Assembly (NCBI GenBank): GCA_048939995.1
Contig: JBHLOY010000032.1
Coordinates: forward strand, 1 to 12,353
DNA: 12,353 bases
Direction: 5' to 3'
Source: Promethearchaeota archaeon
GTDB taxonomy: Archaea; Asgardarchaeota; Lokiarchaeia; Sigyniarchaeales; SOKP01
Below, in pieces: positions 3,886 to 10,230 of the stretch. The notes under the pieces were generated by a model. That model was not told the DNA's origin and made no database searches. It worked only from the letters and a program-made list of their open reading frames with translations. Position 1 is the stretch's first letter. Every line of letters begins with the position of its first letter. Position numbers and translations under genes: made by a program.

Positions 3886-4809
3886 ATGCATTTTATTGAA
3901 CGCTTAATTGAACTAATCCACGATAAACACAGTGTTGTCTGTATGGGGCTTGATCCCAGAATGGAAAAAGAAGGAGAAATCCCTAATTATTTAATCAAAC
4001 AGTACGAAAACCCAAATACAATTATTTTAGAGTTTAATAAAACATTAATAGAAGCAAATCACGATTTAATTCCTTTAATTAAGCCTCAAATGGCTTTTTA
4101 TGAAAAATATGAAGCATTAAATGCTTTAAAGGAGACCATTAATTTTGCCCATAAAAATGATTTATTAGTTATTTTGGATTCAAAGCGAAACGACATTGGA
4201 ACTACTTCTAAGGCATATGCTGATGCTACTTTTCATGCATATAATGCTGATGCTTGTACTTTGAACGCATATCTGGGTTTTGATAGTATAAAACCTTATT
4301 TGGAATTTTACGATGAAAAAGGATTATTTTTACTAGTAAAAACTTCTAACCCTAGTAGCCATGAATTTCAGGATTTATTTAGTATTAAATTAGATAACAT
4401 TAACAATGATGAAATTGAAGTAGAAAAAGATAAAGTTAAGTTGCAGAGGAATTACGTTCAAATGGCTAAACTTGTAAAAGAGTGGGGCAAAAATTTACAA
4501 AACTTTAATCAATATAATAACTTAGGCGTTGTAGTTGGAGCAACATTTCCTCAAGAATTAAAATCAATAAGAGAAATTGTTAATAATTCCTTTATATTAA
4601 TACCTGGTTATGGTGCTCAAGGAGCCCAATTAAAAGATATTAAGTATGGATTTCACCCGAATGGGATGGGGGGAATAGTTAACTCTTCGCGTGCTATTAT
4701 TTATGCCTATAATAAAAAAACTAAGTATCCTCCCGAAAAATATGAAAAAGCAGCAAGAGATGAAATTATTGATATGAATAATCTTATAAATAAGATAATA
4801 GGATTATAA
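3886..4809 (+). CDS. pyrF: Orotidine-5'-phosphate decarboxylase (subfamily 2 type)
   Basis: Contains CMGLDP, KPQMAFYE, ILDSKRNDIGTT (DxKxxDI), KTSNP, GVVVGAT, LIPGYGAQG and VNSSRAI. Confidence 0.96.
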   Translation: MHFIERLIELIHDKHSVVCMGLDPRMEKEGEIPNYLIKQYENPNTIILEFNKTLIEANHDLIPLIKPQMAFYEKYEALNALKETINFAHKNDLLVILDSKRNDIGTTSKAYADATFHAYNADACTLNAYLGFDSIKPYLEFYDEKGLFLLVKTSNPSSHEFQDLFSIKLDNINNDEIEVEKDKVKLQRNYVQMAKLVKEWGKNLQNFNQYNNLGVVVGATFPQELKSIREIVNNSFILIPGYGAQGAQLKDIKYGFHPNGMGGIVNSSRAIIYAYNKKTKYPPEKYEKAARDEIIDMNNLINKIIGL

Positions 4810-5214
4810 CTTTCCTATAAAATTTCCAAGAAAATACATACTAAATATAAGCGGTACGATTACTAAAGCTATAACTGCTAATGAGCGTTTAAGGCCAACT
4901 TGGTGAATAACATTAACAGCTTGTAAATCAATGAAAAATGCAATAATGGCTACTGGAATTATTGCTACAGGATCTCCCTGAAAAGCACCTGCAAAACCAA
5001 GGAGTATTAAAGGAGAACCAATTGCAAGAGTTAAGCCAACCAGAATTAAAAAACTATAACCAACCCATTTTAGATTGGCTCTTTTTTCAGCTTTTACAAT
5101 TATTAAACCTAGCTTTAATAATATGAAAACTACGGCAAAAAGAGCCCCCGCAATGAATAACTCTTTATAATCTCCAATTGAACCCATTCCAGTTTGAAAA
5201 AGATTGAACAGCAT
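4804..5214 (-). CDS. Hypothetical membrane protein, about 4 TM helices
   Basis: 136-aa ORF with four long hydrophobic segments that fills the space between pyrF and the hdrA upstream region. No family recognised. Confidence 0.8.
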   Translation of the reverse strand: MLFNLFQTGMGSIGDYKELFIAGALFAVVFILLKLGLIIVKAEKRANLKWVGYSFLILVGLTLAIGSPLILLGFAGAFQGDPVAIIPVAIIAFFIDLQAVNVIHQVGLKRSLAVIALVIVPLIFSMYFLGNFIGKL

Positions 5215-5347
5215 TTCTTAACCTATTTATGAAGATTCATCTTATTAATAGAATATTTTTTAGTTCCGAAACTTATGAAAGATATATAAAAGATTTTTGA
5301 TTTAAAGTTAATTTTTTAATATAATAATTGAATTAAATTGAAATATT

Positions 5348-5360
5348 AAGGTTTATAATT
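5348..5360 (+). promoter_or_regulatory. Candidate archaeal TATA box for hdrA-mvhD
   Basis: TTTATAA at 5352-5358 in the divergent intergenic region 5215-5421. The region is very AT-rich and has alternatives (for example GATATATAAA at 5281-5290), so specificity is low. Confidence 0.3.
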
Positions 5361-5421
5361 ATATTTATCAGAATTAGTCGGAGGATATAATTAAAAAAAA
5401 GATAGAAAGGATTGATATGCA

Positions 5422-7398
5422 ATGGTAGAAACGCAGATTGAAGAGAAAAAATCTATTGATGAGATTAGAATATTTGTTGCAATTTGTCAATGAGGTATTA
5501 ATGTTGCTGAAATCATTGACACAAAAGCCTTAGCAGAATATTCAATGAAGTTACCTAATGTAGTTGAGGCATTAGATTATATATCATTATGTACCGAACC
5601 TGGAGCAGAATTTATAAAAGAAAAAATGCTGGAAGCTAACGCTAATCGACTTGTTGTAGCCTCTTGTACCCCTAAGACACACGAACCAGTATTCAAAAGT
5701 GTATTAGAATCGATGGGATTGGATTCATCATATTTAGAATTTGTGAATATCCGTGAACATGCAAGCTTTGTTCATCGAAACGATAAGCAAGGTGCCCAAA
5801 AAACTGCTGAAGATGCAATTAGATCTGGAGTGGCTAGAGCAGAAGTATTAGAAAAGATTTTAGTAAAAGAAGTAGATATTACAAAAAAGACTCTAATAAT
5901 TGGGGGCGGAGTAGCTGGATTAAGTGCTGGTATAGATCTTGCAGAAGAGGGATTTGAAGTTTTTCTTGTAGAAAAAAGCCCAACTATTGGGGGAAAAATG
6001 GCAATGCTTGATCGAACATTCCCAACAGATGATTGCAGCATATGAATACTGGGCCCAGTAATGTTACTATCTTCGAGAACTCCTGGTATGAATTTATATA
6101 CATATAGTGAAATCGAAGATATTACTGGATTTGTAGGGAATTTTAAGGTTAAAATTCGAAAAAAGGCGAGATATGTAAATAATGATTGTAACGGATGTGG
6201 TTCGTGCTTTGAAGTATGTCCAGCATACGGATACGATGAATTTAATGAGGGAATGAACCCTCGAAAAGCAATTTATTCATCGTTTGCTCAAGCTGTTCCC
6301 TCAATAGCTCAGATTGATATGACAAAATGCATCAAATGTGGGTTATGCCAAAATGTATGTGAATTAGAAGCGATTGACTTTGACCAAGAAGATGAGATAA
6401 TTGAAATTGATGTAGGTTCAATAATAGTTGCAACTGGTTGGGATGAATATGAACCTGAAACTGGCTATTTAGGCTATAATGTTTATCCCAATGTTATAAC
6501 TCAACTAAAACTTGAAAGGATGTTGGCCCCAAATGGTCCAACCATTGGTCATCTTGTACGACCATCCGATGGTAAAAAACCGAGAAATGTTCTTGTTATC
6601 CAATGTGTTGGATCTAGAGATTTAACCAAACAAACTTATTGTAGTGCTGGAGTATGCTGTATGATTTCTATTAAAAATACTAAACTCATAAAGCAACATG
6701 ATCCAGAAATAGATATAACTGTCGCATACATGGATATTCGAGCAGCTGGAAAAGACTATGAAGAGTACTTTACCGCTTCAAGAAAAGAAGGAATAAGATA
6801 CGTAAGAACTAACATTTCAAAGATTTACGAAGATCCAGAGACTCATAACCTTAAAGTAATTCTCCAGAATACTCTAGGCAATGCCAAATTAAAAGAGTTT
6901 GAATATGATATGGTTATATTATCGTGCGCAATGATTCCACCAAAAGGTATTGAAAAACTTCAAAAAGTATTGAAACTTGAGACAAGCCAGGATGGATTTT
7001 TTAAGGAATTTCATTCGAGATTAAATCCAATTGACACTAAAATACCTGGGATCGTTCTTGCTGGTGTAAGTCAAGGACCTAAATCTATTGCGGAATCTAT
7101 TGCCCAAGGAAGAGCTGCTGCATCATCTTTAGCACGACTTATGAGTAAAGATAAATATCGAATTCTATTAATTAGAGCAAACGTAGAAAAAGAAAAATGT
7201 GCAAAGTGTGGACTATGTGAGCTTAATTGTCCATATGAAGCAATCAAAATTGAATCTGATGGCGCTGAAGTAAATGAGATATTATGTAGAGGATGTGGTT
7301 CATGTTTAGCCAATTGCCCTTCTGAAGCGATTACTTTACGATATTATCGAGAGCCTCAATATGAAAAACAAATAGATGCAATATTAGAAGAGATATAG
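5422..7398 (+). CDS. hdrA: Heterodisulfide reductase subunit A-like flavoprotein, selenoprotein with 2 Sec (U24 at 5491-5493, U208 at 6043-6045), 658 aa
   Basis: ATG 5422, the ORF at 5545 and the ORF at 6061 share one frame, interrupted only by two TGAs. The contexts are RIFVAICQ-U-GINV (canonical HdrA RIGVxVCxCGxNI) and DRTFPTDDCSI-U-ILGPVM (canonical DKTFPTxDCSxCILxP). Also present are SCTPKTHE, VNIREH, the FAD motif IIGGGVAG, inserted and C-terminal ferredoxin CxxCxxCxxxC(P) motifs, and QCVGSRD...CSAGVCCM. Ends in TAG. Confidence 0.95.
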
Positions 7399-7400
7399 AA

Positions 7401-7406
7401 AGGTGA
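7401..7406 (+). promoter_or_regulatory. Archaeal-type Shine-Dalgarno (AGGTGA) of mvhD
   Basis: AGGTGA lies 5 nt before ATG 7412. The same (G)GTGA core precedes the starts at 581, 859, 2481, 8112 and 8923. Confidence 0.75.
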
Positions 7407-7411
7407 GATAA

Positions 7412-7870
7412 ATGGCTACTAAAAATGATGTTAAAATTCTGGCTTTTATGTGTTGGAAATGAGGTTATGGAGCGGGGGATATGGCAGGTACTATTCGAGC
7501 ACAATATCCTGCGACGATAAGACCAATTAGAATAAATTGTACTGGTAGAGTCACCCCCAGTCTTATAATGAGAGCAATAGGAAAAGGGGCCGATGGGGTT
7601 ATTGTTGCAGGATGATATGAAGGAGAATGCGATTATGAGACAGGAAACTTAGTTGCTGCTAAAAACGTTAAATATACTCAAGAAGTGTTAAAAACAGCAG
7701 GAATTTCCCCAGATAGAATTCAAATGTTTCATTGTAGTGCGGCTGAAGGTCAAAAGTTCCAAGAAGAAGTTACGAGAATATCTGAAATAATAGAAAGACT
7801 TGGTAAAAATCCAATAAATGAATCTCTCAATAAAGTAAAAGAAGAAAAAGGAAAAAAGCCGAAAGAATGA
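7412..7870 (+). CDS. mvhD: MvhD/VhuD/FlpD hydrogenase iron-sulfur subunit, selenoprotein with 2 Sec (U17 at 7460-7462, U68 at 7613-7615), 152 aa
   Basis: Manual translation: MATKNDVKILAFMCWK-U-GYGAGDMAGTIRAQYPATIRPIRINCTGRVTPSLIMRAIGKGADGVIVAG-U-YEGECDYETGN...RIQMFHCSAAEGQKFQEEV...LGKNP...KPKE. This matches the MvhD motifs CxxC, RxxCxGR, GADGVxxxGCxxGxC and SAAE, with TGA at two Cys positions. It is in frame with the ORF-track fragment 7685..7870. Confidence 0.95.
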
Positions 7871-7927
7871 ATCTTACGAGAAAAAAAATTAGTCGTGAGA
7901 TGACACACCATAAAGCAATGGTTTCGG
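7859..7927 (+). promoter_or_regulatory. Eukaryote-like (Lokiarchaeal-type) SECIS element
   Basis: Elements in order: ATGA (7867-7870), ATCTTACGA (7871-7879), loop GAAAAAAAATTAG (7880-7892), TCGTGAGAT (7893-7901; 9 bp, one G-U) and GA (7902-7903). A lower helix CCGAAA (7859-7864)/TTTCGG (7922-7927) closes it. It sits at the 3' end of an operon with four Cys-position TGAs. Folded by hand. Confidence 0.8.
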
Positions 7928-7931
7928 ATTT

Positions 7932-7960
7932 AACTATTTTTTAAAAAAATTTTTATAGTT
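7932..7960 (+). terminator. Candidate oligo-T terminator of the hdrA-mvhD transcript
   Basis: T6 at 7937-7942 and T5 at 7950-7954 lie just 3' of the SECIS, flanked by AACTAT/ATAGTT. Archaeal terminators are typically U-tracts. Confidence 0.4.
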
Positions 7961-8111: not shown

Positions 8112-8786
8112 ATGGCGGAAGCTCCTAAAGAAGAAATGTCTGCATCAAAAGTGCTTGCTTTTATTGGGATGTTATTCACGTTATCCCTCGGAATTGCATA
8201 TTTCTATGCGGCACTCGTTGCTCCATTAAATATTCTCTGGGGTATAATCTGTTTAGTTATTGTATTCTTGATATTCGTTTCATTGGGATTAATAAGTTTT
8301 GGCAAATTTAAAATTCCTTATACATGGTGGATGTTACTTATCTATGGTGCTGTTATAGTGATAATCGTAATGTTCTTTGGTGTAACTATTTACCCAGGGC
8401 CCTACTTCCCAGCAGTTTTACTTTTAATGGCATTTCTTATAGAATTGTTAAGTGCGAAGAAAGCTTATAAAGTCTCTAAAATGGTAGCACTTTTAGGTTG
8501 TGCGTTTGGTGCATATGATTGTGTACTACTGATGTTAAATGTTACCCCTCTTACCGCTTATTTAGTTGTTAATGCTATCTTCGGTTTAGCTATCATCGTT
8601 ATTTTTTTACTGGTGATTTTCGATTTAGTAAACTTTAAAATCTTTGATTATTCATGGTGGTTCGTTCTATTAGTTGGTTTTGTTATCTTTACATGGATAT
8701 CAACATTTGCTGGTGGATATCCCGTAGCTGGATTTGGAGGAATAACGATATTAATAGCATTTATACTTATGTTAATGGCATATTAA
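8112..8786 (+). CDS. Hypothetical polytopic membrane protein (about 8 TM, two tandem 4-TM repeats)
   Basis: 224 aa and almost entirely hydrophobic, with a GTGA RBS. The internal repeat includes FKIPYTWWMLLIYG vs FKIFDYSWWFVLLVG. Confidence 0.85.
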   Translation: MAEAPKEEMSASKVLAFIGMLFTLSLGIAYFYAALVAPLNILWGIICLVIVFLIFVSLGLISFGKFKIPYTWWMLLIYGAVIVIIVMFFGVTIYPGPYFPAVLLLMAFLIELLSAKKAYKVSKMVALLGCAFGAYDCVLLMLNVTPLTAYLVVNAIFGLAIIVIFLLVIFDLVNFKIFDYSWWFVLLVGFVIFTWISTFAGGYPVAGFGGITILIAFILMLMAY

Positions 8787-8922: not shown

Positions 8923-10230
8923 ATGGGCAAAAATTTACTTTTAAATGCTGAAAACCAATTTTTAAAAGCAGAACAATTATCTCAAGCTAGACAATTTAAA
9001 AAAGCAGCTAAGAAGTACAATTCAGCTGGCCATACGTACCTCAAATTGGAAAATTATGAGAACGCTAAATATAGCTTTATTAATGGAGCAAATGCATTTT
9101 TAGAATTAGAAAAAATACAATCTAGTCTAGAATTACTTAGACTGGCGGGCGATTCGTCTATATTCTATGAACGCTATAAAGAAGCGGAAGAAATATTTAG
9201 AAAAGCTGTAGATTTTATTCCAAAATTAAAAAATATAGCAGATCGCAACGTTCAATATGTGCTTTTCTCTGTATTATCCTATTTGTGTTTATTCACTAAT
9301 GCAAGGCAAGAAGATGGTTTAAAATTTATTAAAAAAATACAAAATAAAATTGAGAGTACGTATTTTAAAGAAAGTTCATTAATAATCTTAGTTACGGATT
9401 TAACAATCGCAATACGTGATAAAAATCCTGCTTATTTAGAAAAAGTCAAGAATAATCTTCATAATTATAAACTGAGTGATGCCGAATTACTATTACTTAA
9501 AAAGATTCTATTTATGGCAAATATTCAGTTATCTTTGGAATCTGAAATGAATTTAGACAAAGACCTTTATACTACAAACGAAATAATTAATCTAAAAGTA
9601 AATATTAACACAACATCATTAGTGTCAGTGATTCAAAACCAATTTTATAATTTTATCACTGAGAAATTTAGCATAACAAAGCTTAATCTAACACTATCTG
9701 ATAATCTCAGTTCTAGTAAAAAACCAGCTATCCCGATTGATTTGGAAATTGGAAAAAGTTATGAGTTAGATTTTGTAATTAAGCCTCATTTTCAACTTGA
9801 CAATCCATTTATTGGGCCATTATCTCTTACATTTGAATTGAATGGCCTTTTAACTTTCATCTATGAAACAATTAAAATAATCCCTAATCTAATTCCACCT
9901 CCTCCATCATTGGAAGTATCTACAAAAAATTTGAGAACTCCGCTTATTGATCAGACATTCCCATTAGAAATACTGGTGCAAAATCAAAGTGAAGGTGAGG
10001 CTTTGGATGTAAATATTGATACAGAGTTTCCTGAACAGCTTAAAATTATGAGGGGAACAACTAATAAACAAATATATTCACTAAGACCAAATGAGGACCT
10101 TAAATGGGAAATAAATCTAAAACCAATTGAGGCAGGAGATTATATTATAAAGGTATTAGTTAAATTTAAAGATCCGGATCAAAATCTAATTGAAGAAGTT
10201 AAAGAATTTCCACTTTCGATAAAACTCTAA
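8923..10230 (+). CDS. Hypothetical soluble protein: N-terminal TPR/alpha-SNAP-like helical repeats plus two predicted Ig-like beta-sandwich domains
   Basis: The N-terminal Ala/aromatic helical periodicity is seen in FKKAAKKYNSAGHTYLKLENYENAKYSFINGANAFLEL. From about aa 205 the pattern is beta-rich, and a PPPP linker at about aa 325 precedes a BatD/DUF11/TRAP-beta-like domain. No signal peptide or TM is seen. Confidence 0.75.
   Translation: MGKNLLLNAENQFLKAEQLSQARQFKKAAKKYNSAGHTYLKLENYENAKYSFINGANAFLELEKIQSSLELLRLAGDSSIFYERYKEAEEIFRKAVDFIPKLKNIADRNVQYVLFSVLSYLCLFTNARQEDGLKFIKKIQNKIESTYFKESSLIILVTDLTIAIRDKNPAYLEKVKNNLHNYKLSDAELLLLKKILFMANIQLSLESEMNLDKDLYTTNEIINLKVNINTTSLVSVIQNQFYNFITEKFSITKLNLTLSDNLSSSKKPAIPIDLEIGKSYELDFVIKPHFQLDNPFIGPLSLTFELNGLLTFIYETIKIIPNLIPPPPSLEVSTKNLRTPLIDQTFPLEILVQNQSEGEALDVNIDTEFPEQLKIMRGTTNKQIYSLRPNEDLKWEINLKPIEAGDYIIKVLVKFKDPDQNLIEEVKEFPLSIKL

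Follow-up and report, generated by a model that had tools for sequence, protein, structure and literature searches.

The closest described counterpart of the locus reported here is the HdrA-VhuD tandem of Lokiarchaeota, in which two genes with selenocysteine (Sec) codons share one Sec insertion sequence (SECIS) of a type named lokiSECIS (Mariotti et al. 2016, PMC4989117). In a later survey of 227 Sec-using Asgard genomes, 58% had hdrA and 57% had frhD/vhuD as selenoprotein genes; the two were always adjacent and had one common eSECIS-like element (ISME J 2024, PMC11227280). Here, we analyzed a 12,353-nucleotide (nt) stretch of Promethearchaeota DNA (the window), which is the entire 12.4-kb contig JBHLOY010000032.1 (C8) of a genome of 3.75 Mb in 38 contigs (30.5% GC, ~98% complete under the standard code), and which carries hdrA, a homologue of the gene for heterodisulfide reductase subunit A, followed by vhuD (also mvhD, FlpD family). 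We are highly confident that these two genes form a bicistronic selenoprotein operon of a Lokiarchaeia-type Asgard archaeon, in which four UGA codons specify Sec through one shared lokiSECIS. The original prediction, made from the letters of the window, had treated the operon as hidden or new, which does not stand, as the arrangement was published in 2016 (PMC4989117) and 2024 (PMC11227280). With the length of one loop aside, the locus has all of the defining features of the 2016 tandem, as derived from that tandem itself; the observation is real, but neither the system nor the concept behind it is new. What the locus provides is a clean, fully documented case of the Asgard Sec system, regarded as a link between archaeal and eukaryotic Sec decoding: a single kink-turn SECIS apparently serves four UGAs spread over two cistrons and, through its AUGA, also supplies a stop codon.

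Both genes are on the forward strand. Read with TGA as Sec (U), hdrA (5422-7398) encodes 658 residues, including two Sec, and ends in TAG, while vhuD (7412-7870) encodes 152 residues, also with two Sec, and ends in TGA. The lineage and layout are those of the Lokiarchaeota tandem: hdrA precedes vhuD in the same orientation, with hardly any sequence between them. The 13-nt spacer seen here is typical, in that gaps of 13 or 19 nt are the commonest among orthologues, and it holds a Shine-Dalgarno-like GGTGA (7402-7406), 5 nt before the vhuD start, that by its position would give vhuD a ribosome-binding motif of its own. Residues 13-655 of HdrA align to the HdrA chain of the crystallized Mvh-Hdr complex (5odc_A, E 1e-199), as well as to chains from the M. 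maripaludis and M. marburgensis cryo-electron microscopy (cryo-EM) structures, and the protein has flavin adenine dinucleotide (FAD)/NAD-binding and 4Fe-4S ferredoxin Pfam domains, with Cys motifs present. VhuD spans the full Pfam FlpD profile PF02662 (1-123 of 123 positions, E 2e-43) and matches the PDB chains 9sfi_K, 9sw2_D, and 5odc_D. The pair is orthologous to the HdrA(u)-VhuD of Methanococcales and Methanopyrus (PMC13518236; 9sfi), with E-values of 5e-195 to 9sfi_A and 1e-35 to 9sfi_K, and shares with it the hdrA-vhuD synteny, the canonical HdrA Sec site (Sec197), and, apparently, the same VhuD Sec positions.

Each of the four in-frame TGAs stands at a conserved Cys position. In hdrA, the first (5491-5493) specifies residue 24, the second residue of a CxU motif in the N-terminal domain, opposite Cys13 of 5odc_A, and the second (6043-6045) specifies residue 208, the canonical Sec site within a DCSIU motif, opposite Cys197 of 5odc_A, the counterpart of Sec197 in M. 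maripaludis HdrA (PMC13518236). In vhuD, the codons at 7460-7462 and 7613-7615 specify residues 17 and 68, which fall opposite two unassigned ‘X’ residues of 9sfi_K and opposite Cys16 and Cys67, respectively, of the M. marburgensis MvhD chain 9sw2_D; we infer that both X residues are Sec. Several Sec in HdrA, including one near residue 200, and two Sec roughly 50 codons apart in VhuD (51 codons from U17 to U68) are also seen in the Lokiarchaeota tandem, whereas the methanogen HdrA has a single Sec and lacks the second one found here, U24. Across ~80 orthologous loci, all from independently assembled Promethearchaeota metagenome-assembled genomes (MAGs), HdrA position 24 has U at 72 loci and C at four, and position 208 has U at 79 and C at none; VhuD position 17 is U in 75/76 (C in none, another residue in one), and position 68 is U in all 76. 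Some relatives have additional HdrA Sec positions, at 57 (26 loci), 82 (1 locus), and 603 (1 locus), which appear to be among the five possible ones reported in 2016 (PMC4989117). Within the same genome, at least eight Cys-type hdrA-mvhD pairs (on contigs C7, C13, C17, C19, C26, C33, and C38) have Cys at exactly the Sec columns, while three further Sec-type hdrA-vhuD pairs have TGA at those columns, on C17 (76271-73906, reverse strand), C21 (21494-23937, forward), and C26 (42516-44868, forward), with a lokiSECIS then following each. The C26 copy of hdrA has a third Sec, at HdrA column 82.

Standard ORF calling (table 11) fragments both genes, into pieces such as 5545-6045, 6061-7398, and 7685-7870, as might be seen if they were decaying pseudogenes or if the TGAs were assembly or sequencing errors. 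We consider such an origin extremely unlikely, given that the four TGAs recur identically in dozens of independently assembled MAGs, that three paralogous pairs of the same genome show the same pattern, and that neither gene is interrupted by a frameshift, TAA, or TAG. By our own arithmetic, the chance of 658 codons free of TAA and TAG is ~1e-18, these being ~6% of random codons at 30.5% GC. Further, both genes are full length relative to their orthologues, with 76-96% identity to most and ~59% to the most distant; the nearest loci elsewhere, at up to 96% identity, are all from Promethearchaeota (Lokiarchaeia-type Asgard) MAGs. Reassignment of UGA to an amino acid throughout the genome, for which nothing speaks beyond the in-frame TGAs themselves, has in our view a negligible probability. 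TGA terminates 293 of the 1816 ORFs of ≥250 residues in the genome (16%) and is therefore not reassigned genome-wide; the genome is nearly complete under the standard code, and in-frame TGAs are absent from the ten other ORFs examined in the window, nine of which are complete, each with TAA as its stop, and one of which is cut off by the window end. On these matters, the original prediction held up well: it had placed all four TGAs correctly (starting at 5491, 6043, 7460, and 7613, as translation with TGA as U confirmed), had put each at a conserved Cys position (which we find as Cys in solved structures and same-genome paralogues), had described both genes as intact (confirmed by translation and full-length alignments) and the other window genes as free of in-frame TGAs, and had argued against pseudogenization, which the conservation of the TGAs in 72-79 of ~80 orthologues disfavors, and against genome-wide reassignment.

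Its core reading, that the UGAs are recoded as Sec, is supported as well. It had also proposed a search of the genome for Sec machinery, and every component sought (tRNA-Sec, PSTK, SepSecS, EFsec, and SelD) is present. SepSecS is encoded at C23:113710-115011 (482 bits), and the SelD/SPS gene (C11:4162-5025, reverse strand) has one in-frame TGA and hence is a selenoprotein gene itself. PSTK (on C37, 161 bits, next match 34) and EFsec (C23:108323-109213, 236 bits) score under the NCBIfam cut-offs, yet each lies far above its next match, and EFsec adjoins SepSecS and the tRNA-Sec gene. The latter, with a UCA anticodon, is directly upstream of SepSecS (C23:113475-113631, or positions 17476-17632 of locus L101), 4.3 kb from EFsec and on the opposite strand. 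An intron-bearing tRNA-Sec near EFsec is likewise found in Lokiarchaeota; however, a single T-arm intron is all that we found reported for Lokiarchaeota tRNA-Sec, whereas the gene here carries two, one interrupting the D arm (~34 nt) and the other the T loop (~30 nt). When spliced, it folds (minimum free energy [MFE] −42.2 kcal/mol) as an archaeal tRNA-Sec 9/4 cloverleaf: the acceptor stem has 9 bp and the T stem 4 bp, the D arm consists of 7 bp closing a loop of 4 nt, the variable arm is long, and a G discriminator is followed by CCA. Among genomes of this genus, five have an intronless tRNA-Sec resembling the spliced model, and two others have the two-intron form. An intron in the acceptor stem (GGCCCU...CGA) was considered and dropped in favor of the D-arm intron because the intronless congener genes, which read GGCCCUUGACGGUCGGAGUGGUC, agree with the latter and because the spliced form folds as the 9/4 cloverleaf.

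The two introns explain why standard tools pass over this gene. ARAGORN reported no tRNA-Sec in the genome, and the Rfam tRNA-Sec model, run on the whole genome, returned only an ordinary tRNA-Arg (33.5 bits), while the real gene beside SepSecS scored 26.7 bits (E 0.25), below the threshold. A degenerate whole-genome scan for the 5′ strand of the acceptor was too loose to be informative. ARAGORN found only ~20 tRNA genes in this 98%-complete genome, many with noncanonical introns; evidently, standard tools detect tRNAs poorly in this lineage. With ORF callers fragmenting genes such as hdrA and vhuD and a two-intron tRNA-Sec being missed, Sec use in such MAGs can be under-called.

The presence of this machinery also bears on whether selenium could be dispensable for reading through the UGAs, with a near-cognate tRNA placing Cys or Trp there, or whether the UGAs could act as a regulatory brake that limits the amount of full-length protein. 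The variable selenium supply of sediments and the many retained Cys-type hdrA-mvhD pairs, which could substitute, lend this idea some appeal. We nevertheless find it very unlikely, as a full and specific Sec machinery and a SECIS have been retained, the TGAs are confined to Cys columns, and Sec197 of HdrA is built in the M. maripaludis structure (PMC13518236), to which the probable Sec at the VhuD X positions of 9sfi_K may be added.

The decoding signal, overlooked in the original prediction, overlaps the end of vhuD. Identified by a pattern scan, folding, covariation, and a covariance model, the lokiSECIS (7867-7903, forward strand) opens with AUGA (7867-7870), the UGA of which doubles as the vhuD stop, and continues into an AU-rich 9-bp stem (7871-7879 paired with 7893-7901) that carries an A-rich apical loop of 13 nt (GAAAAAAAAUUAG, 7880-7892) with G as its last base, before closing with GA (7902-7903). 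It folds at −10 kcal/mol (z = −4.2 relative to shuffles). A single element of this AUGA/9-bp stem/A-rich loop/GA design after vhuD is also what is found in the Lokiarchaeota tandem, and a SECIS core that can supply the UGA stop is known from Lokiarchaeota VhuU.1. A strict version of the pattern follows vhuD in 56/75 orthologues, and a relaxed one (7/9 pairs or GUGA allowed) in 71 of the 72 orthologues for which sequence further downstream is available. Throughout the orthologues, no variation is seen in the AUGA, the AAA of the loop, its final G, or the GA, but the stem covaries: all eight pairs predicted from the lokiSECIS alignment show covariation, and in an alignment of 68 loci to a covariance model (R1), all nine stem pairs are altered on both sides. 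Model R1 gives one match per locus, in the window and at every orthologous locus, always 3′ of vhuD, and no match inside hdrA or between hdrA and vhuD at any of the loci scanned.

In several respects, the element resembles eukaryotic type I SECIS, with an AUGA...GA kink-turn core, adenines that open the apical loop, and a 3′ location. Unlike in eukaryotes, however, the upper stem is shorter, no SBP2 is known, and the mRNA is polycistronic. When the window was searched against Rfam with E-values up to 1 allowed, no SECIS family matched, the eukaryotic SECIS model included, and only a chance match to CAESAR was returned; Rfam contains no lokiSECIS model. The element also differs from the SECIS of the methanogens, where each gene has its own, of the GAA_A-bulge type, rather than sharing one of kink-turn type; the GC-rich stems with a GAA_A bulge that mark the Methanococcales SECIS are absent from the element after vhuD.

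The stop codons carry a related signal. Among 76 orthologues, hdrA ends in TAA in 39 and TAG in 37 but never in TGA, against a genomic TGA background of 16%, which fits a SECIS that would otherwise recode the hdrA stop; UAA or UAG is also the hdrA stop in the Lokiarchaeota tandem. The vhuD stop is TGA in 15/56 orthologues, and in 11 of these 15, it is the UGA of the AUGA core.

One could propose that the hdrA UGAs are served not by this distal SECIS but by local elements within hdrA, akin to Sec redefinition elements or bacterial-type hairpins, or by a second, unrecognized signal. These UGAs are 1.8-2.4 kb from the SECIS, with a cistron boundary between, and a hairpin-capable stretch at 6042-6092 (AUGA, 8/9 pairs, a 26-nt loop, and GA), containing the palindrome ACUGGGCCCAGU, begins exactly at the Sec208 UGA. 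However, that stretch lacks an A-rich loop ending in G, is missed by model R1, and is of a kind expected about once per window by our own estimate, so that we judge it to be chance or coding constraint. A second pattern match (4774-4812), a perfect 9-bp hairpin with AUGA...AA at the pyrF stop between convergent genes, lacks the SECIS loop features and is likewise missed by R1; pyrF has no in-frame TGA, and this hairpin is probably terminator-like or due to chance. The restriction of R1 matches to one per locus, never in hdrA, and the avoidance of TGA as the hdrA stop also argue against local signals, as does the finding that RNAz detected no other conserved structure in the coding sequences examined in 2016 (PMC4989117). 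We therefore see local or second signals as quite improbable.

Under the shared-SECIS reading, a single mRNA would run from a promoter in the AT-rich spacer at 5215-5421 to the oligo-T tracts (T6 and T5, 7937-7954, forward strand) 3′ of the SECIS structure, which, from the sequence, are likely an archaeal transcription terminator of the bicistronic mRNA, and would carry both cistrons separated only by their short spacer. Sec-tRNA(Sec) would be produced by SerRS, PSTK, and SepSecS, with selenophosphate from the Sec-containing SelD, and EFsec would bring it to the four UGAs, guided by the one 3′ SECIS. UGAs at 2376, 1824, 407, and 254 nt upstream of the SECIS would thus be recoded across two cistrons, yielding full-length HdrA (U24 and U208) and VhuD (U17 and U68). 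The fifth UGA, the vhuD stop within the AUGA core, would terminate translation, being too near the SECIS for recoding, and the TAG of hdrA would not be recodable by the SECIS. Such distant action on several UGAs, combined with a minimal distance within which a nearby UGA terminates, has a parallel in eukaryotic multi-Sec mRNAs, such as that of SelP. In the resulting complex, HdrA would be the FAD-containing, electron-bifurcating subunit, with VhuD as its [2Fe-2S] electron-input adaptor.

Several points weigh against this reading. In the archaeal literature, we found no experiment on a 3′ SECIS acting on UGAs of an upstream cistron 1.8-2.4 kb away, nor is a protein that binds SECIS known from any archaeon (PMC4989117). 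At 13 nt, a length shared only with the closest relative (L013), the apical loop departs from the canonical 11 nt of the Lokiarchaeota tandem. Stem cells are paired in 93.8% of cases across the 68 loci, compared with 81.2% in shuffles and 29-50% with a slid partner column, but the covariation set was first chosen by a pattern that requires pairing, which inflates this percentage, though not the diversity of pair types. The partners of the enzyme are not at the locus, as neither hdrBC nor mvhAG was found in a Pfam scan of the 12-kb contig. Finally, the insertion of Sec at the four UGAs, although almost certain, is a prediction from the sequence.

What the four Sec residues would do can be considered from the Hdr-Mvh structures, including two cryo-EM studies of 2026 (PMC13580544 and PMC13518236). 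U208 is the second residue of a CxxC pair (DCSIC/U). In the Cys-type crystal structure, its counterpart Cys197 serves as a ligand to the partner protomer's N-terminal [4Fe-4S] cluster (PMC9012536), while in the M. maripaludis cryo-EM structure, Sec197 lies between cluster A3 and FAD and appears to be joined to a cysteine in a selenylsulfide-like manner (PMC13518236), and in M. marburgensis, the pair Cys202/Cys205 is termed “additional” and binds an unknown ligand (PMC13580544). MvhD Cys16, with which VhuD U17 aligns, is likewise termed an additional, non-ligand cysteine (PMC13580544). By contrast, VhuD U68 (Cys67) is probably a [2Fe-2S] ligand, by elimination among the five conserved Cys/Sec of VhuD. 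For U24, a BLASTP comparison of the HdrA N-terminal domain with VhuD was not significant (E 0.35) and provides a register only, a weak one, that sets HdrA C22, U24, C57, and C82 opposite VhuD C14, U17, C43, and U68; it suggests that U24 may be the counterpart of MvhD Cys16. Going by the structural papers and this putative counterpart, three of the four Sec (U208 in its pair by FAD, U17, and U24) would be outside the fixed cluster ligands, making a role as a selenol/thiol relay or as dynamic ligands more likely than that of static Se-Fe ligands. The claim in the original prediction that both proteins have Se-ligated Fe-S clusters is thus borne out in part, in that U68 is a likely ligand, and not for U17, which matches a non-ligand cysteine, or for the U208 pair, described as additional. 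The mapping of Sec onto such “additional” cysteines of the Hdr-Mvh path could inform how electrons pass from MvhD to the bifurcating FAD.

Beyond the hairpin itself, the MFE fold of 7845-7945 places the SECIS within a three-way junction (7859-7927, forward strand), formed with a lower helix (7859-7863 with 7923-7927, CCGAA/UUCGG) and a third hairpin (7907-7911 with 7918-7922). When the wider MAFFT alignment was given to RNAalifold, the prediction was limited to the SECIS stem, because the 5′ flank was off by one base in half of the rows; the covariance model was therefore built from the in-register subset of the alignment. The resulting junction model (R1) matches at full length in 68 loci, where 3/5 pairs of the third hairpin are altered on both sides; the lower helix is invariant in these loci and hence uninformative on covariation. 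At the two most distant loci, L087 and L089, the alignment rows show the lower helix compensatorily swapped to CGAUGG with CCAUCG/CCAUUG. A lower helix that closes the kink-turn loop is reminiscent of eukaryotic helix I, and the 2024 SECIS model allows a lower stem (PMC11227280); the third hairpin, in contrast, we did not find described in published lokiSECIS work. Together, the conserved lower helix and third hairpin set this element apart from the published lokiSECIS and are the sole possible addition to the known system. We tentatively raise the idea, which we hold to be somewhat less probable than its negation, that the lokiSECIS is the central arm of a conserved three-way junction that enables it to act over 2.4 kb and across a cistron boundary. 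The conserved junction could, in any case, inform how an archaeal SECIS reaches distant UGAs.

The junction model matches eight places in its own genome, including the 3′ ends of paralogous vhuD genes. Full-length matches remote from any vhuD are at C17:215774-215843, C36:9823-9891, C16:9809-9882, C11:426268-426340 (reverse strand), and C17:97616-97687, and each presumably lies at the 3′ end of some further selenoprotein gene. On the forward strand at C17:421779, an AUGA...AA element accompanies a C terminus like that of VhuU (DCULSCAAH).

The genes neighboring the operon in the window are housekeeping genes, with hisS, pyrF, an M24 peptidase, and a family-3 glycosyl/phosphoribosyl transferase identified by Pfam. 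Elsewhere, the genome has ~20 CCG-domain genes and encodes two large subunits of [NiFe] hydrogenases, among which partners of this HdrA may lie. The ORFs that flank the operon, at 4804-5214 (reverse strand, 136 residues) and 8112-8786 (forward strand, 224 residues), have no Pfam match, and a 435-residue ORF at 8923-10230 has a sub-threshold TPR match only.

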